In this document: positions 33,028 through 40,757 of the stretch, in pieces
How the letters are laid out: every line of letters starts with the position of its first letter
Position numbering within the stretch: position 1 is the first letter of the stretch
Assembly: GCA_964549165.1 (NCBI GenBank)
Contig: CAZJUH010000001.1
Span: 140,566-191,792, forward strand
From: an uncultured Gammaproteobacteria bacterium
GTDB taxonomy: Bacteria; Patescibacteriota; Microgenomatia; UBA12405
Reading direction: 5' to 3'
DNA length: 51,227 bases
Notes under the pieces: model-generated
The model's database searches: none
The model's input: only the letters and a program-made list of their open reading frames with translations
Told to the model about the DNA's origin: nothing
Program-made: the position numbers and the translations under genes

Positions 33028-33738
33028 TTATTTTCCCATTCTCCTCTCTCTTTCTTGATACCAAATTATCACCTTTTCCATTTCTTTCGGGGTAAAATCT
33101 GGCCACAAAATATCGGTAAAATACAATTCAGCGTAGGACATTTGCCAAAGCAGAAAATTACTTAGTCTAAATTCTCCCCCTGGTCTAATAATTAAATCAG
33201 GATCTGGCTGGTTTTTGGTATACAAATAGTCAGAAACTAACTTTTCGTTAATTTTATTTACCGGGATTTTTTCTTTTACAATTTTTTTAATTGCATTAAC
33301 TATTTCATCCCTACCGCCGTAATTTAGAGCCACGTTAAATTGCAATTTTTGTTCAACTACCGACATTTTAATCATTTTTTTTATAGCTTCTTTGACCTTA
33401 AAGGGAAAGGCCTGAAAATTTCCTAGAACAAAAAATTTAATTCCTGATTTCTTATATTTTTCGGCTTTATCTCGAACCATCTTAATTAATAAATTAAAAA
33501 TTCCCATAACCTCTTTGGCGCTTCTTTTTCGCCAATTTTCCGTTGACAGAGCATAAACTGTTAAATTTTTTATTCCTATTTTACGGCAATACTCAACCAT
33601 ATTTTCAAGGTTTTTTGATCCCTCTTCATGTCCCTTGCCGTCAGGTAAATTATGTTGTCTGGCCCATCTCCGATTTCCATCCATAATTATGGCAATATGT
33701 TTTGGAAGATTATTTGGATCGATCTTTCTCTTAATCAT
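33028..33738 (-). CDS. uppS: Undecaprenyl diphosphate synthase
   Basis: HIAIIMDGNRRWA, YALSTENWRR, NYGGRDEI, PDLIIR.GGE.RLSNFLLWQ..Y motifs. Confidence 0.96.
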   Translation of the reverse strand: MIKRKIDPNNLPKHIAIIMDGNRRWARQHNLPDGKGHEEGSKNLENMVEYCRKIGIKNLTVYALSTENWRKRSAKEVMGIFNLLIKMVRDKAEKYKKSGIKFFVLGNFQAFPFKVKEAIKKMIKMSVVEQKLQFNVALNYGGRDEIVNAIKKIVKEKIPVNKINEKLVSDYLYTKNQPDPDLIIRPGGEFRLSNFLLWQMSYAELYFTDILWPDFTPKEMEKVIIWYQERERRMGK

Positions 33739-33775
33739 ATTAGTTAAGTCGAATTATATCCTAAAAGTATTCCAC

Positions 33776-33800
33776 AAAAAATCCCCCAGAGTGGGGGATT
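33776..33800 (-). terminator. Intrinsic terminator after 16S rRNA
   Basis: AATCCCCC/GGGGGATT stem, 5-nt loop, followed by a T tract on the minus strand. Confidence 0.75.
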
Positions 33801-33845
33801 CTTAATATCAGCTTCATTATTAGCCAAATTGTTAGTACCAGAAAG
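33799..33845 (-). other. 16S trailer arm of the rRNA processing stem
   Basis: Complementary to 35497-35547 in two blocks (TTCTTAATATCAGCTTCATT; TTAGCCAAATTGTTAGTACCAGAAAG). Confidence 0.8.
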
Positions 33846-33882
33846 GTTTTGAGTAATCCGCCTCATCGGCGGACAAAACCTC

Positions 33883-35425
33883 AAAGGAGGTGATCCATCC
33901 GCACCTTCCAGTACGGATACCTTGTTACGACTTAACCCTCATCGCTGGATTTACCTTAGTCCCGATAAATCGGGATATTGGGTACCCCCAACTTTGCTGA
34001 TTTGACGGGCAGTGTGTGCAAGAGGCGAGAACGTATTCACCGCACGCTGCTGATGTGCGATTACTACCAATTCCGGGTTCATGCAGGCGAGTTTCAGCCT
34101 GCAATCCCAACTGAGGGCTAGTTTAGGGATTAGCTCCACCTTGCGGTCTTGCAACCCTCTGTTATAGCCCATTGTAGGATGTGTGTAGCCCTGGATATAA
34201 GCATCATGATGACTTGACGTCGTCCCCTCCTTCCTCCTAACAAAATAATGCTAGGCAGTCTTCTGTGACACAATAACACAGAACGGGGGTTGCGCTCGTT
34301 ACCTCACTTAAGAGAACAACTCACGTCACGAGCTGACGATAGCCATGCAACAGCTGTGTACCACCCTCAAAGGATGTCCCGATTTCTCGGGATTTGCAGG
34401 TACATTTCAAACCCAGGTAAGGTTCATCGCTTTGTATCGAATTGAACCACATGCTCCACTGGTTGTGCGCCTCCCCGCCAATTCGTTTGAGTTTCGGCCT
34501 TGCGGCTATACTCCCCAGGCGATCCGTTTAACGCGTTTGCTAACATCCCTCCCTAATAAATTAAAGAAGAACTAACGGACAATGTTTACGGCTAGGACTA
34601 CTCAGGTCTCTAATCTGATTTGCTACCCTAGCTTTCGTCTCTGAACGTCAGTATGTACCTAGTTACCCGCCTTCGCGCTTGGTGTTCTTTTTAGTATCCA
34701 CGGATTTAACCCCTACACTAAAAATTCCAGTAACCCCGATACCACTCTAGTCTTTTAGTATCTTGCCCCTTTCTCCGATTGAGTCGGAGTCTTTGAAACA
34801 AGACTTAAAAAACCGTCTACAGACCCTTTACGCCCAATAAATCCGAGTAACGCTCGTAGCCTACGTATTACCGCGACTGCTGGCACGTAGTTAGTAGCTA
34901 CTTATTCTAGTGGCCTTCATGGCCGCTAAAAAGGAGTTTACAACCCTAGGGTCTTCATCCTCCACGCGGTGTCGCTGCGTCAGACTTTCGTCCATTGCGC
35001 AAAATTCCTAACTGCTGCCACCCGTAGGTGTATGGGCCGTGTCTCAGTCCCATTGTGCCGGACTCTCCGCTAAGAGCCGGTAACCGTCATTGCCTTGGTA
35101 AGCCGTTACCTTACCAACTAGCTGGTAGTAAATAGGCCGTTTTCGTAGTGACTTGCGTCTTTCACCCGTAGGCGTATGGGAAATTACCCCCTCTTTCGAG
35201 GAGCTATGTCCCGCTTCGAAGTACGTTCCTATTTTATACTCACCCGTTTGCCACTACCCTGCGCTCCGCACTGCGTTTGAGCTTCGGAATAGCAGGCTAT
35301 CCATATTTAAGGATCGCATGCGACTCCGTAGTTCCACCGCAAAGTGGAACGAAGGATCGTTCGACTTGCATGTCTTAGGCACACCGCCAGCGTTCACCCT
35401 GAGCCACGATCAAACTCTTAGTACA
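33883..35425 (-). rRNA. rrs: 16S rRNA, stand-alone, with enlarged V1 region
   Basis: AGAGTTTGATCGTGGCTCAG near the 5' end, GTGCCAGCAGTCGCGGTAA, AAGTCGTAACAAGG and 3' GGATCACCTCCTTT; ends approximate. Confidence 0.98.
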
Positions 35426-35496
35426 AACCAAGATATTATGCTTACGCACCATCTTGGTGTAAATTGAAAATGAAATACCGAAATATATCGGTGTCA

Positions 35497-35547
35497 CTTT
35501 CTGGTACTAACGAAATGGCTAAAAAATGAAGCTGATATGTTAAAGAA
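35497..35547 (-). other. 16S leader arm of the rRNA processing stem
   Basis: Complementary to 33799-33845. Confidence 0.8.
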
Positions 35548-35590
35548 CGAAAACAAAATAATTCCCCATCTAAGGGGTAGAGGTATTATA

Positions 35591-36640
35591 TTATAAATTT
35601 TCGATTTGTGCAGTAGGCAAGTTAATTCTTTCGGTTGAAGTAAAAATTGTCTGATACTTTTGGCAAATCTCAACTACAATCTGGCGATGATTTTGGTCAA
35701 GTTCCGAAAAAATATCGTCAAGAAGCAGTATTGGTTTCTCGTTATATTGCTGCTCTAAATAATTTATTTGAGCGAGTCTCAAGGCTAAAACTGCCATTCT
35801 CTGCTGTCCCCTTGAGCCCCAAAAAGCTAAATTTTTGTCTTCAGTTTCAAACTCATCAAAATCAACTGAAAAATCATCTAAATGTGGACCACATTTACTG
35901 TGTCCGGCCGCCAGTTCCAAGGGATATAGTTTTTGTAACTTATCTTCACTAATTGTTGACGCTCCGTAGTTAATTGATAATTTGCTTATTTCTTTATCCT
36001 CATGCTCTGAAAAAAATAAATTTGCCGACTTGACCCAGTTAAAACGGAAACTTTGGATAATTTCCGCGTTTTTTATGAGTGACTGGTCCCAATAAAATAA
36101 TTCCGTTTTTTGAGCTTTACCACTGGCAATTATATCTAAAAGTTCGTTCTTATTTTTTAGAGCCTTATGATATTGAGATAAGGCCGAGGCGTAACGCCAT
36201 TCTATATTGACAAATATTCCATCTAAAAAGTCTCTTCTCCTCCCTGGTGAGCCGTTAATAAGTCTCAGGTCTTCCGGCTCAAAAACAACTATTTTAACTT
36301 TTCCCCAATATTTTGCCCTTGTTTTAATTACTTTATCAATCAAAAAACGTCGTTTTAAACTACCATTTTCTTCTCGCCAAAGCTGAACCTCAACTTCATT
36401 TTCTCCTTGTTTACCAACAACTTTAGCCCGAATGCTACTAATTTTTTCACCCCATTTTATCAGCTGTCCAGAGCCTGACAACCTGAAACTTTTTCCTGAC
36501 GACAAAAAATAAATCGCTTCCAGTAAATTGCTTTTTCCACTGCCGTTTTTACCTAAAATTAAATTGGCTTTTTTATCAAATTCCACCAGTTTTCTGTCGT
36601 ATGACCGGAAATTCTGTAACAAAACCTTGCTAATATACAT
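35591..36640 (-). CDS. recF: DNA replication and repair protein RecF
   Basis: LQNFRSY, GKNGSGKSNLLEAI Walker A, GSPGRRRDFLD, GPHLDD, SRGQQR and PILLLDDIFSELD motifs. Confidence 0.95.
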   Translation of the reverse strand: MYISKVLLQNFRSYDRKLVEFDKKANLILGKNGSGKSNLLEAIYFLSSGKSFRLSGSGQLIKWGEKISSIRAKVVGKQGENEVEVQLWREENGSLKRRFLIDKVIKTRAKYWGKVKIVVFEPEDLRLINGSPGRRRDFLDGIFVNIEWRYASALSQYHKALKNKNELLDIIASGKAQKTELFYWDQSLIKNAEIIQSFRFNWVKSANLFFSEHEDKEISKLSINYGASTISEDKLQKLYPLELAAGHSKCGPHLDDFSVDFDEFETEDKNLAFWGSRGQQRMAVLALRLAQINYLEQQYNEKPILLLDDIFSELDQNHRQIVVEICQKYQTIFTSTERINLPTAQIENL

Positions 36641-36905
36641 CTTCTGCCTATTATAACCGATTCTTACCCAAAATTCTTTATGTCCAGAGACTGTCGGTAG
36701 GTTGGAACCAATTCTTTGCTAACCTAATTTCCATCTACGAGACTCTTAAACCTATTATACCGGAAGAAAAATTAGCCTTGAGTTATATATAATAAGAATT
36801 ACCATTGGTGGAGTAGAACAATAGTAATTTCATATTTCGGGGTAATTGGTCTATATATTAACAGCAACAAACTGAATCAAATATGTGCCTATTTTGTCAT
36901 GTAGG

Positions 36906-36934
36906 TTGACAGATGGTTTCATGGTTGCTACTAT
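36906..36934 (+). promoter_or_regulatory. Sigma70 promoter of the retron operon
   Basis: TTGACA (36906-36911), 17-nt spacer, TG-C-TACTAT (36929-36934). Confidence 0.8.
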
Positions 36935-36940
36935 GATTAT

Positions 36941-37234
36941 GGAGACTCTACGAGTCGCACATTAAAATCCTTTAACACGGCAGATATTCCAACTTTCTAA
37001 ATGGTGCCTTTGGCACCGCAGGGGTTTATCCCCTGCTTTCTCCGTCGGGCTGCATCGTTACGATGATGAGTTAACGATTACTGTTACAGTAATCAGTTAT
37101 TCTTTACCTTACACGATGGCAGAGCGCTCCGCGCGAAAAAGTAATTAAGGGTTTAGGTTCAGTTTCCTTCCTATCAAGGCTAGGTCTGCTGATGGCACGG
37201 TGCAGCCATTTTTAGGGTTTGCACAGTTAAAGGA
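36941..37234 (+). ncRNA. Candidate retron ncRNA (msr-msd)
   Basis: 9-bp terminal inverted repeat TCCTTTAAC/GTTAAAGGA (36968-36976/37226-37234); hairpins at 37003-37017 and 37018-37036; 11-bp stem 37048-37058/37197-37207; directly upstream of a retron-type RT operon. Confidence 0.65.
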
Positions 37235-37245
37235 GGTGAGTTCAA

Positions 37246-37443
37246 TTGAATCACTTTAATTTTAAATGTGTCTCAACTTTGATAAATTCAAAGGTGAGAA
37301 ACGGGAAACTGAATTTAGATCAGGCTAAAGTCATAATCGGCCATGCAAAAGAAATCAAGCATGCTTTATCAACCAAGGATAACCAAAAGTTGGTCAAGGC
37401 AGTTGATAGATTCTGCAAATCGATATTTGAGTCCGATAGTTGA
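37246..37443 (+). CDS. Small helical protein, candidate retron effector
   Basis: TTG start 7 nt after a strong AGGAGGTG SD; amphipathic helical pattern; first ORF of the operon. Confidence 0.65.
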   Translation: MNHFNFKCVSTLINSKVRNGKLNLDQAKVIIGHAKEIKHALSTKDNQKLVKAVDRFCKSIFESDS

Positions 37444-37505
37444 TCCCCTTAATTTCTTTTTGTAAAAACCATTGGGTAAATGACTTTTACAAAAGGTAAA
37501 GATGT

Positions 37506-37802
37506 ATGAATTATTCCAAGACAATAAAAATTATCAGAGCTGCTATAGGCCTGTCTCAACAAGACTTCGCGTCACTAACTGAGATTGATCCTAGTTTAGT
37601 GTCCAGAATTGAATCCGGCCAAAGGTCACTGTCGGTGACCAATTTAAAAAAAATTTCAACAAAACTGTCAATTCCAGAGAGTTTGATGAAACTTCTTTCG
37701 AGTGACGAGACCGAACTAAAAGGGTTGACTAAAGACGAATACCAAAAAATGGCCGAAAGTTTACTTTCGCTTTTAATAAAAAAACAAAATGGGAGAAAGT
37801 GA
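37506..37802 (+). CDS. XRE-family helix-turn-helix protein
   Basis: IRAAIGLSQQDFA...IDPSLVSRIESGQR pattern; overlaps the RT start by 14 nt. Confidence 0.9.
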   Translation: MNYSKTIKIIRAAIGLSQQDFASLTEIDPSLVSRIESGQRSLSVTNLKKISTKLSIPESLMKLLSSDETELKGLTKDEYQKMAESLLSLLIKKQNGRK

Positions 37803-38685
37803 TTCCAGTGTGAAAAATGTTTTGTCTACGAGAAAACTCGCGAGTATTTTAAAGATCAACGTCGACGAGCTTAGAGCAGTTTCTGAAAATGCAAGCTCTT
37901 ATTACCGGCCGTTTATTAAGAAACTGCCAAAGCCTAGAGAAATTGATAACCCAACCGGTAGACTAAAGATCATCCAAAAGGCAATTGATGATAAGTTGCT
38001 AAAAAAAGTAGAGTTGCCGGAAACAGTTTTGGGAGGAGTTCCCGGGAAGTCGGTAAAGGACAATGCCATGTTTCATCTTGGTAAACCTGTGGTAGTGACC
38101 GTCGATTTGAAGAAGTGTTTCCCAAACACAAAAGACATTTCAGTATTCAAGTTATTTCGTAACTATTTCGGATATTCGACTGTAAATTCTTTATTACTGA
38201 TGAAACTAACAACGTTTAACGATCATGTGCCCCAAGGTTCACCGTGTAGCTCGTCACTGGTTAATCTTTGTCTCCTGGCTTTACATGAAGAGTTGCAAGC
38301 CTTCTCTGGGAAATATGGCTTCATGTGTACCGTTTGGGTAGACGATATAACAATATCCGGCGAAGGCGCTGAAAAACAGATTTCGGATGTGATTAGAATA
38401 ATAAAAAGGCATAAATACAACACAAGGTGTAAAAAAATTAAAGTAATGAGAGGTAGTGGAAGACAAGAGGTCACCGGAATAACTGTAAATAATTTAGTGT
38501 CTGTTCCAAAGAAGAAAATATCGGAAATAAAGAAGATTATCCATGACATTAGGGTAAAAAACCTTAACATGAATTCAAAAGAATATATTATGTTAAAAGG
38601 AAAAATGGGATTTGTAGGATATGTTAATCCTAAACAGTTCAATACATTAAATAAGTTTTTGCTCAAATGTGGGATAAAAGTCTAA
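37789..38685 (+). CDS. Retron-type reverse transcriptase
   Basis: REIDNP..RLKIIQ, region X NAMFH (NAxxH), DLKKCFP, PQGSPCS..LVN, WVDD, region Y VTG; 298 aa with no maturase or endonuclease domain. Confidence 0.92.
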   Translation: MGESDSSVKNVLSTRKLASILKINVDELRAVSENASSYYRPFIKKLPKPREIDNPTGRLKIIQKAIDDKLLKKVELPETVLGGVPGKSVKDNAMFHLGKPVVVTVDLKKCFPNTKDISVFKLFRNYFGYSTVNSLLLMKLTTFNDHVPQGSPCSSSLVNLCLLALHEELQAFSGKYGFMCTVWVDDITISGEGAEKQISDVIRIIKRHKYNTRCKKIKVMRGSGRQEVTGITVNNLVSVPKKKISEIKKIIHDIRVKNLNMNSKEYIMLKGKMGFVGYVNPKQFNTLNKFLLKCGIKV

Positions 38686-38712
38686 TAATTTTTGGGTGTA
38701 AAATTACCTAGT

Positions 38713-39387
38713 ATGGAAAACCCCGGAGAAAAAAGGTACGAAAAACAAATCATGTGTAAGGAATGCCAGCATCCAACATGGCATCGCGTTCTTAATGAAG
38801 CGAAAGGAGGTTGGGACGATGATGAATCAGGGATATGGGAGTCTAAAACTTTTTATTCTTTGCAGTGCTTGGGTTGCGATAATGTTTGCCTCGTCGTCCA
38901 CAGCATGTTTAGCGAAGATATTGGTGATGACGGGAATCCTGAATTAAACATTGCAATTTATCCCTCACCATATAAAAGTGACAGGGAACCCATCGAGAGA
39001 TTGCACCGTGTACCTAAAAATATCGGTTCAGTATATGAAGAAACAATAAAGGCTTTTAACGCTCATCTCATAATCTTAGCAGCCATCGGTGTCAGGTCAA
39101 CGATAGAGGCGATAGCAATTGACAAGGCTATTACCGCTAGAGGAATCAAAACTAAAATAGAAGCGATGAAAGGACAAGGAATTATTACCGAGGATGGCGC
39201 AAAATTATTACTTCTCGTAAAAGATATCGGGAATCTGGCTGCTCACGAGATCAAGAAACATCACCATGACGATCTCTCTTTGTGTCTTGACATCATTGAG
39301 GGTGTACTTATGGAACAGTATGTACTTCCAGAAGAAGCAAAGCGCACTAGGGAAATAATTGATGGTAGATGGGAAAGAGCGAGTTAG
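38713..39387 (+). CDS. Zinc-ribbon plus DUF4145 (HEPN-like) protein
   Basis: CKEC and CLGC pairs; YEE...A....AA...R..IE and GN.AAH motifs; start ATG 38713 (track starts at TTG 38692). Confidence 0.75.
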   Translation: MENPGEKRYEKQIMCKECQHPTWHRVLNEAKGGWDDDESGIWESKTFYSLQCLGCDNVCLVVHSMFSEDIGDDGNPELNIAIYPSPYKSDREPIERLHRVPKNIGSVYEETIKAFNAHLIILAAIGVRSTIEAIAIDKAITARGIKTKIEAMKGQGIITEDGAKLLLLVKDIGNLAAHEIKKHHHDDLSLCLDIIEGVLMEQYVLPEEAKRTREIIDGRWERAS

Positions 39388-39397
39388 AAAAAACTAT

Positions 39398-40231
39398 TTA
39401 CCTCGGAAATGTTGGTGGATTTGATACTTGGACAACTGGTTCGGTCTTGAGCATTTGCTGTAGTTCTGGATAGTCTAAGATTTCCGTTACAAGTGAGGTA
39501 GATTGAACAATACCAAGGCCAGCATTCTCCTGAAATTGGATCCTGGATTGTCCCGTTCTAGTGCTAACAGCATCCTCAATGTAGTTGAGATTGTCGCTAA
39601 TTATACCCAATAACTTTAATCCACGTCCGGAGCCAATTGAAAACGAAGATTGGCTGAATGAAGCGATGGTGGGTCTGTAAAAAACCGGACTACCACTACT
39701 GCCCGGGTAAACATTTGCGTCTATTAGGAATGTCTTATTATTCAATTTTGCCGAAACTAATCCGGCCCTAATCAATGGCGTTGATTTGTTCTCATTTGAA
39801 ACCCCGAGACCCAATGGGTATCCTAGAAAAAATACATCTTCGCCCAATGGTAGATTTTCAAAATTCTCAAATAAGTTCTGGCTCACTAACTTGATATCGT
39901 CTTCATTTTGCTTGATTGCGATAGGTGTTACAGCAATATCTACATTTTGATCGTGATGAAAAACCCATTTTAAGCCGAACTCGCGGTGTACTTGTTCAAT
40001 ACTTCTTTGCTCTTTTCCCCCATCAAGTCTATTTAAGATTACGTTTAGTCCTTTAAACTCTTCTTTTGTGTACGGATTAACCACAATGTGTCGACATGTT
40101 ACAAGAACAAAGTTTTCTTTGTAGTTGATCAAAACACCGGTACCGTGGGGTTGTAGCACACTATTATTGTTTGGTAGTTCAAACAACACTACTGTCTTGA
40201 GAAACTCTTCGTTTAACCAATTTGCAATCAT
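39398..40231 (-). CDS. Trypsin-like serine protease
   Basis: VTCRHIV (His), VDIAV (Asp), FLGYP and PGSSGSPVF (Ser) motifs. Confidence 0.85.
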   Translation of the reverse strand: MIANWLNEEFLKTVVLFELPNNNSVLQPHGTGVLINYKENFVLVTCRHIVVNPYTKEEFKGLNVILNRLDGGKEQRSIEQVHREFGLKWVFHHDQNVDIAVTPIAIKQNEDDIKLVSQNLFENFENLPLGEDVFFLGYPLGLGVSNENKSTPLIRAGLVSAKLNNKTFLIDANVYPGSSGSPVFYRPTIASFSQSSFSIGSGRGLKLLGIISDNLNYIEDAVSTRTGQSRIQFQENAGLGIVQSTSLVTEILDYPELQQMLKTEPVVQVSNPPTFPR

Positions 40232-40442
40232 AGTCTATTTTACCCTTATTTGACCCTGTGTCGACCTGTGTGGCATTTTTATATCTATAACCCAAAACTA
40301 CATAAAGCTACAAACTTTGTGCCTGACAGAGGCAAACCCCATCCGTGTTATAAGATTTTCACCATATCGACAAGAACATGAGAAAACTAGAGATTTTGTG
40401 CGTAAGGTCTTAAAAGACAGAAATACTATAAGTTAACCTTAA

Positions 40443-40757
40443 TTATTGAGTTGGCTGGTTGACTACACCAACAACAATTAGCCACAAGACCACCAATCCC
40501 CATCCAATATACTTTTGTTTCTTAGTTAACTCTTTTCTTCTCTTAAACAAATAATAGATAGCGTCCAGACCGCAAAACGAAGCAACGGCTAGTAATAGTC
40601 CACCCTTAAATAGGGTACTACCTATTATTGCGATGATTAAAAGCACGTTTATATTCCATCGGTGCATACCTAAGATTTCATCGACAGTCTTTCTTTTTTT
40701 AACCGTTACAGTCTCTGGTTTAGATATTTCTTCGTCCATATTTTTATTTATCTCCAA
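40443..40757 (-). CDS. Small membrane protein
   Basis: Three hydrophobic segments; overlaps the upstream gene. Confidence 0.6.
   Translation of the reverse strand: MEINKNMDEEISKPETVTVKKRKTVDEILGMHRWNINVLLIIAIIGSTLFKGGLLLAVASFCGLDAIYYLFKRRKELTKKQKYIGWGLVVLWLIVVGVVNQPTQ

Follow-up and report, generated by a model that had tools for sequence, protein, structure and literature searches.

A new example of ribosome-binding-site sequestration in a type VI retron RNA from a probably Patescibacteria-like genome

How is the small protein (SP) of a retron controlled when the Shine-Dalgarno (SD) sequence of its gene lies within the structured RNA of the same locus? The question was raised by a locus in a 51,227-nt stretch of DNA, here called the window, in which a structured RNA is followed in 5' to 3' order by a 65-aa SP, an HTH protein and a reverse transcriptase (RT). 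A preliminary description of the locus had noted that the SD overlaps the 3' arm of a terminal inverted repeat, and this was confirmed, with AGGA of the SD (37231-37234) lying inside the 3' arm of a perfect 9-bp repeat (the closing stem). It had also proposed that translation of the probably toxic SP is gated by the folding or the RT-bound state of the ncRNA. Here we describe the locus, its relatives and the RNA structures that bear on this proposal. The coordinates of the features are collected in Table 1.

With its SP-HTH-RT layout the locus is a type VI retron in the classification of Mestre et al. 2020. The type VI assignment of the RT is by HMM typing only; RT_VI was the top PADLOC model with 228.7 bits over the full model, and RT_III-A came second with 183 bits, 45 bits lower. 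In the PDB, the RT matched the RT of retron Ec86 (4e-23). The HTH and RT genes share a 14-nt overlap. If the predicted promoter at 36906-36934 is used, the transcript would start at about 36941, and in many related loci, among them L001, L004 and L012, an equivalent TTGACA-containing box directly precedes the 5' hairpin. The segment from 36941 to about 37500, the presumed extent of the transcript, is on balance best read as a hybrid RNA (hyRNA), in which an msr-msd-like structured RNA is fused to the SP mRNA. No retron RNA family was found in Rfam searches with permissive thresholds over 33500-40500 or with gathering thresholds over the whole window. An HDV-ribozyme-like match at 37268-37335 reached 22 bits where the gathering score is 44 (E = 1) and was treated as chance, and the other Rfam matches were to 16S rRNA and one tRNA only. 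The sequencing runs with the locus were DNA metagenomes only, with no RNA run among them, and one metatranscriptome shared 4% of words.

Table 1. Features of the retron locus, in window coordinates, and the basis on which each was assigned
Feature	Position	Strand	Basis or remark
Predicted sigma-70-type promoter	36906..36934	+	TTGACA, 17 nt, TACTAT; 10/12 matches, best promoter-like site in region
5' stem-loop GACUC-UAC-GAGUC	36944..36956	+	Stem sequences covary in relatives
Closing stem 5' arm UCCUUUAAC (= TCCTTTAAC), anti-SD	36968..36976	+	Complementary to 37226-37234 over all 9 bp
Two msr-like hairpins, GGUGCC/GGCACC (37003-37017) and GCAGGGG/CCCCUGC (37018-37036)	37003..37036	+	MFE and centroid folds
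Putative msd (RT template), hairpins 37053-37065 and 37076-37094	37040..37132	+	Boundaries inferred
Direct repeat copy 1, GATGGCA	37115..37121	+	Inside putative template
IR1, 5' arm of long-range repeat bracketing the SP ORF	37133..37151	+	Pairs with 37446-37463
Anti-CDS segment	37150..37168	+	Pairs with SP codons 20-25, 37303-37321
Direct repeat copy 2, GATGGCA	37191..37197	+	Linker 5' of hairpin 37200-37224
Conserved hairpin GUGCAG / UUUGCAC	37200..37224	+	RNAalifold; abuts closing stem 3' arm
Closing stem 3' arm GUUAAAGGA (= GTTAAAGGA)	37226..37234	+	Exact reverse complement of 36968-36976
Shine-Dalgarno AGGAGGTG (= AGGAGGUG)	37231..37238	+	Read from sequence; 7 nt before TTG
Start-codon hairpin GGUGA.UUC / GAA.UCACU	37235..37255	+	MFE/centroid folds; cognate specificity p = 0.009
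SP gene, 65 aa, TTG start, predicted three-helix, putative toxic effector	37246..37443	+	ORF, profile search, AlphaFold2
SP coding segment, codons N-G-K-L-N-L	37303..37321	+	Pairs with anti-CDS
IR2	37446..37463	+	Begins 3 nt past SP stop; pairs with IR1
SP-HTH intergenic hairpin	37453..37499	+	Compensatory changes, RNAalifold columns 572-612
HTH gene, 98 aa, Cro/C1 type	37506..37802	+	Pfam HTH_3 6e-12; PADLOC HTH_VI 2.5e-18
Retron reverse transcriptase gene, 298 aa	37789..38685	+	RVT_1 1.6e-14; PADLOC RT_VI 2e-68

The upstream neighbours of the retron are recF (35591-36640, minus strand) and a 16S rRNA gene (33883-35425, minus strand). In the latter, an insertion of 82 nt stands in place of 4 nt of the Rfam model (at about model positions 79-82), and the 23S gene is absent from the 33.8 kb downstream of it, so the rRNA genes are unlinked. 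Unlinked rRNA genes would suit a Patescibacteria-like genome. On the other side, a DUF4145 gene (38692-39387, plus strand) begins 7 nt past the RT stop codon. Among all loci compared this gene was found only in L004/L005, and there its protein was 92% identical, compared with 71% for the RT, 60% for the HTH protein and 48% for the SP. The DNA identity with L004 rises from about 0.65-0.74 to 0.80-0.89 near 38600, and the homology with L004 ends near 36850 and 39400. The distribution of the DUF4145 gene, the step in identity and the two homology limits suggest that the ncRNA, SP, HTH, RT and DUF4145 genes form a mosaic mobile unit. A convergent trypsin-like protease gene (39398-40231, minus strand) matches the PADLOC candidate defence protein PDC-S45 (2e-26), so that the retron lies within a small defence island.

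The SP reading frame runs for 65 codons from TTG (37246-37248) to the stop codon TGA (37441-37443). The preliminary description had named a weak TTG as its start and had made conservation of the ORF a check of its proposal. Both points stood: the TTG lies at 7-nt spacing from the SD and is aligned exactly with the ATG of L004 and L006, in which the same SD, AGGAGGTGA, is located 7 nt before the start codon. An iterated HMM search placed an SP homologue directly 5' of HTH-RT in 32 distinct related loci, and the ORF is thus real. The homologues are 62-72 aa long, each with a strong SD, and all start with ATG except those of the window and its closest relative, L001, which start with TTG, and that of L013, which is ambiguous. 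Length, start context and residue pattern are kept across the 32 loci, which come from several phyla. The RT homologues, at 93, 71, 68 and 45-48% identity, were from groundwater and aquatic metagenomes, and more distant RT relatives were found in MAGs of Patescibacteria, Saccharibacteria, Acidobacteriota, Nitrospirota and Binatia.

The SP had no significant match in Pfam, NCBIfam or PADLOC. A profile search collected 87 protein clusters, none of them named and none with a Pfam family. The AlphaFold2 model consisted of three helices with a pLDDT of 82.5, and a search of the PDB with this fold returned nothing at E below 0.001. The SP is probably toxic, judging from its position in the operon and its equivalence to the SPs of Retron-Vpa2 and Retron-Sen3. 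When the SP gene was compared with that of L001 (2458-2655), there were 6 synonymous and 8 non-synonymous codon changes, compared with 66 and 21 in the RT gene. This ratio fits fast evolution of the SP, a constraint of RNA structure on its silent sites, or both.

The closing stem was present in both the MFE and the centroid folds of 36940-37260 (z = -4.07 against shuffles). As a match in a single sequence it is suggestive but weak when set against chance, as its 9-mer has three occurrences on both strands of the 51-kb window where 0.95 are expected, with about 0.003 expected per 300-nt upstream stretch. The 9-mer alone is only modestly improbable and the case therefore rests on the comparison with relatives. 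In these, the RNA begins with a 5' stem-loop whose stem varies, for example as AACUC/GAGUU, AGUCU/AGACU or GGCCGCC/GGCGGUU; in a 7-sequence alignment two of the five pairs of this stem were changed on both sides and 77% of cells were paired. The stem-loop is followed by a linker, GCACAUUAAAA (36957-36967), that is kept across the family. In 13 of the 22 family representatives the segment right after the linker is complementary to the locus's own SD and spacer, counted when the best duplex started no more than 2 nt from the linker end and covered the SD. The pairs differ by lineage, with UUUACACCUC/GAGGUGUAAA, UUGUUUCUCC/GGAGAACAAA and AUCUCCUUGCGGCAG/CUGCCGG..CAAGGAGA as examples.

To assess the specificity of this pairing, the 30 nt that follow the linker were matched with the 22 nt that precede the start codon. 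Whole-region RNAduplex scans were noisy, with pyrimidine-rich segments pairing with any SD, and an uncorrected cognate test was confounded by GC content, so the scans were replaced by double-centred tests from which row and column effects were removed. Cognate anti-SD/SD pairs then exceeded non-cognate pairs (p = 0.006, or p = 0.0014 when the windows were widened), while control segments gave p = 0.44 and 0.29. Column by column, 67.8% of the closing-stem cells were paired, a value weakened by register shifts between lineages. Together with the fold, these results bear out the earlier view of a retron in which the SD of a small ORF is occluded by conserved RNA structure. One could still suppose that chance complementarity lies beside a spurious small ORF, since AT-rich DNA makes a single 9-mer match only modestly unlikely and the SP is without a Pfam family. 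The conservation of the ORF across phyla, the covariation statistics and an ncRNA that is more conserved than the RT gene refute this explanation, and we consider it to be extremely improbable.

In the full-length MFE structure, the anti-SD arm was paired through CCUUU (36969-36973) with the SD of the HTH gene, AAAGG (37492-37496), and not with the SD of the SP gene. A similar pairing between anti-SD and HTH SD was predicted for Sen3 (10.64898/2026.04.27.721009). A matching AAAGG upstream of the HTH start was not found in L004.

Only the 5' half of the SD is buried in the closing stem. The 3' half, GGUGA (37235-37239), is paired with codons 2-4 (37248-37255) in a separate hairpin, with the UUG start codon (37246-37248) in its loop and 3' stem. 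The overlap that had been noted concerns one half of the SD, and the other half and the start codon belong to the second hairpin. Start hairpins of other sequences were found in relatives, such as UGAACUC/GGGUUCA in L004, UUUUAUG/CAUAAAA in L009 and AUAUGC/GCAUAU in L012. In the folding model, 9.5 kcal/mol were needed to open 37229-37250 when the full RNA was folded, and 13.7 kcal/mol in the ncRNA-plus-start form with the closing stem. The cost was 8.9 kcal/mol when everything 5' of 37226 was removed and fell to 1.9 kcal/mol when the early CDS was masked. Because removal of the non-coding part changed the cost only from 9.5 to 8.9 kcal/mol and masking of the CDS brought it down to 1.9 kcal/mol, the local hairpin between the SD and the early CDS dominates the occlusion in silico, with the 5' arm adding to it. 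The closing stem as the main occluder was therefore not supported by the model. When copy 2 of the direct repeat was masked in silico, the SD stayed closed.

The inverted repeat could also simply be the a1/a2 priming duplex of a retron that places the branching G, and would then cover the SD only because the genes are tightly packed, with no part in regulation. In the canonical retron geometry of the Ec86 type, the 5' arm is followed 3-4 nt on by a conserved G. The stem geometry of the locus is that of a canonical retron, with G36980 in the motif AGCAGAUA as the candidate branching G, and this G is kept in L001 and L004, whereas the neighbouring G36979 is not. However, the register of the 3' arm shifts by lineage and yet still covers the SD and spacer, and the arm therefore tracks the SD rather than a fixed template distance. 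A second, independent hairpin also covers the start codon, and in Vpa2, deletion of the non-coding part led to derepression of the SP (10.1101/2025.10.22.683967). We therefore regard a priming duplex with a merely incidental overlap as unlikely.

The remaining helices tie the SP coding region to the structured RNA. The two msr-like hairpins (helices 3 and 4) are kept in relatives, with 78-81% of cells paired, and the putative msd differs in both sequence and length from one relative to the next, in line with published accounts of type VI msd stem-loops. IR1-IR2 (helix 5) showed 84% of cells paired and 8 of 15 pairs changed on both sides. The anti-CDS segment forms 19 contiguous pairs with the CDS, five of them G-U; in this helix (helix 6), 93% of cells were paired and seven pairs were changed on both sides. 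Both helices were recovered by RNAalifold, and the cognate value was reached by 0 of 5,000 permutations for each. Perfect GC-rich anti-CDS helices are present in distant loci (L059, L018, L093, L066 and L067). The conserved pairing between ncRNA and CDS implies that the two are co-transcribed. In the hairpin that abuts the closing stem (helix 7), 90.5% of cells were paired and four of six pairs were changed on both sides. For all helices together, 82.3% of cells were paired, compared with 75.2 +/- 0.9 in shuffled columns, which never reached the observed value in 500 attempts, and 40-52% with slid partners. The ncRNA is 97% identical to that of L001 and the RT gene 89%. Because helix pairing exceeds its controls and the ncRNA is more conserved than the RT gene, the comparison indicates that selection acts on the RNA itself.

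The closing stem crosses both the IR1-IR2 and the anti-CDS helices, and these elements must therefore form alternative conformers or a pseudoknot. The hairpin between the SP and HTH genes overlaps IR2, competes with IR1-IR2 and buries the SD of the HTH gene. Since IR2 can pair either with IR1 or inside this hairpin, translation of the HTH protein may depend on the same conformational choice. One extension of these observations is a bistable RNA, in which the closing stem and the combination of IR1-IR2 and anti-CDS helices would be mutually exclusive and IR1-IR2 would be the true priming duplex, with G37462 as the primer. IR1-IR2 lies just 3' of direct repeat copy 1, and G37462 lies downstream of the SP ORF. 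We find this improbable, more so than the incidental priming duplex. If it were true, the effector ORF would be nested in a permuted msr-msd fold, and the choice between a conformer with exposed and one with hidden SD would be made by the initiation of reverse transcription itself.

Two further candidate helices were rejected. An "msd stem" in the MFE structure (37048-37058/37197-37207) was absent in L004 and was not recovered in the RNAalifold consensus, and the inverted repeat I2 (36865-36884/37423-37442) was excluded from the RNA since its 5' arm lies 5' of the predicted -35 box. We also observed that AAACTGAAT at 37306-37314, in the SP segment that pairs with the anti-CDS, recurs at 36869-36877, 5' of the predicted -35 box, and that 36869-36881 is about 85% complementary to 37153-37165.

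The preliminary description had pointed to recent reports of translational control in type VI retrons and had asked for its novelty to be checked. This caution was justified, as sequestration of the ribosome-binding site (RBS) has been published twice (10.1101/2025.10.22.683967; 10.64898/2026.04.27.721009). [quoted passage not shown] Derepressed SP was toxic when the non-coding part was deleted; msDNA was necessary for SP translation, and msDNA supplied in trans was sufficient to induce it (10.1101/2025.10.22.683967). For the 7-nt direct repeat, Zhang et al. 2025 (10.1101/2025.10.22.683967) propose that msDNA acts there and so lifts the repression of SP translation.

The locus described here resembles Vpa2 in its SP-HTH-RT operon with a structured RNA continuous with the SP CDS, in the placement of the RBS and start codon in conserved stems, and in the sequence after the SP stop codon that pairs back to the msr-msd arm through IR1/IR2. 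It also has a 7-nt direct repeat whose copies lie in the putative msd and close to the RBS element, likened to that of Vpa2 by length and placement as given in the published description. The columns of copy 2 were unpaired in the RNAalifold consensus. The two copies co-vary in relatives, where the repeat reads, for example, TGATAGCA, TGCAGCACG, ACAGCAG, GTAGCACG, GACGGAC or GGACGCG. The longest common substring averaged 6.65 nt for cognate and 5.35 nt for non-cognate pairs, and 0 of 10,000 permutations reached the observed value. In contrast to Vpa2, which is from a gammaproteobacterium, the host here is probably Patescibacteria-like, the SP has 65 aa instead of 55 aa and a TTG start, and the 5' end of the RNA holds part of the SD in a long-range stem, as described for Sen3.

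The direct repeat, an SD that is occluded twice and the TTG start lead us to favour translational gating as in Vpa2, which is the most likely reading and, in our estimate, has a slightly better than even chance of being correct. In this reading, the AGGA half of the SD is held by the anti-SD arm (36968-36976), and the GGUGA half together with the weak UUG by the start hairpin. The coding region is tied to the scaffold by the 19-bp helix with 37150-37168 and by IR1-IR2 across the ORF. By analogy with Vpa2, in an uninfected cell the RT and the HTH protein would bind the RNA, little msDNA would accumulate and the SP would stay untranslated. A phage would trigger the accumulation of msDNA, and the cDNA, as the complement of repeat copy 1 (37115-37121), could anneal to copy 2 (37191-37197) beside the helices that occlude the SD. 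Reverse transcription with RNase H may also strip the template strand. Either annealing or removal of the template would remodel the fold so that the SD becomes accessible together with the start codon, and the SP, as a toxin, would then halt the infected cell. The production of msDNA, the toxicity of the SP and the derepression step are all carried over by us from Vpa2 to this locus as presumptions.

The second report, on Retron-Sen3 and 53 relatives (Garcia-Rodriguez et al. 2026, 10.64898/2026.04.27.721009), points to a different type of control. The RBS of the Sen3 SP lies in a basal stem of 5' and 3' inverted repeats, a conserved 5-bp stem-loop is found upstream of the 5' repeat, IR1-IR2 flank the SP, and covarying pairs are present inside the SP CDS (10.64898/2026.04.27.721009). 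The SP of Sen3 is nevertheless made constitutively, and the HTH is a protein antitoxin that neutralises it without RT or ncRNA (10.64898/2026.04.27.721009). In the locus studied here, the SP could likewise be translated at a basal level despite the structure, with the HTH protein as the real antitoxin that binds the SP. The RNA fold would then serve mainly as a scaffold for RT/HTH binding and for priming, and burial of the SD would only tune expression. The SD in a basal stem, the upstream 5-bp stem-loop, the IR1-IR2 around the SP and the structure inside the SP CDS, which are shared with Sen3/cl2075, are all found here, and an HTH_VI protein is present and conserved at the locus. On the other hand, this lineage has the co-varying direct repeat that marks the Vpa2 riboregulator, which is not mentioned for Sen3 in the accessible part of the report; the SD here is buried in two structures, and translation would begin at a TTG. 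The SP has 65 aa, whereas that of Sen3 has 79 aa with an amphipathic C-terminal extension. Control as in Sen3 is in our judgement a possible but clearly less probable explanation than translational gating as in Vpa2.

The claim in the preliminary description that a translational switch operates "instead of protein-protein antitoxin binding" is, for this reason, not established, as Sen3 has the same arrangement and yet is controlled at the protein level by its HTH. Sen3 differs from the present locus, as read here, in that control of its SP is post-translational through the HTH, with constitutive ssDNA, and in that its lineage is reported from Beta- and Gammaproteobacteria. The length of the SP (65 compared with 79 aa) and the host phylum argue against membership of the locus in cl2075. 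A type VI retron from Candidatus Levybacteria was already in the Mestre dataset, and its msDNA was undetectable in E. coli (10.64898/2026.04.27.721009), which counts against the gating favoured here.

With regard to more distant systems, the locus is like Ec86 (Retron-Eco1) in its homologous RT and in an ncRNA that has terminal inverted repeats and in which a G follows closely on the 5' arm. In canonical retrons of the Ec86 type, in contrast, the ncRNA is non-coding, the msDNA is abundant and is the antitoxin, and the effector is a separate gene outside the RNA fold. In type I toxin-antitoxin systems of the hok/sok type, long-range 5'-3' pairing together with local SD occlusion blocks translation of the toxin mRNA until it is remodelled. 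The fold-back inhibition of a small-toxin mRNA is a likeness without homology; those mRNAs are activated by 3' processing and have an antisense RNA as antitoxin, whereas the activator proposed here is a reverse-transcribed DNA.

Every structural feature in the window is already in the Vpa2 paper, in the Sen3 paper, or in both. The locus is thus a new example of RBS sequestration in a type VI retron RNA, an arrangement that is itself already in the literature, and reveals no new mechanism. With it, the hybrid-RNA design of type VI retrons reaches Patescibacteria-like, Acidobacteriota and further environmental lineages, and a previously unnamed SP family of 87 protein clusters comes with it. Occlusion by a basal stem as in Sen3 and a direct repeat as in Vpa2 are combined in one lineage, which makes this lineage a useful comparator for asking which RNA features predict translational and which predict protein-level control.
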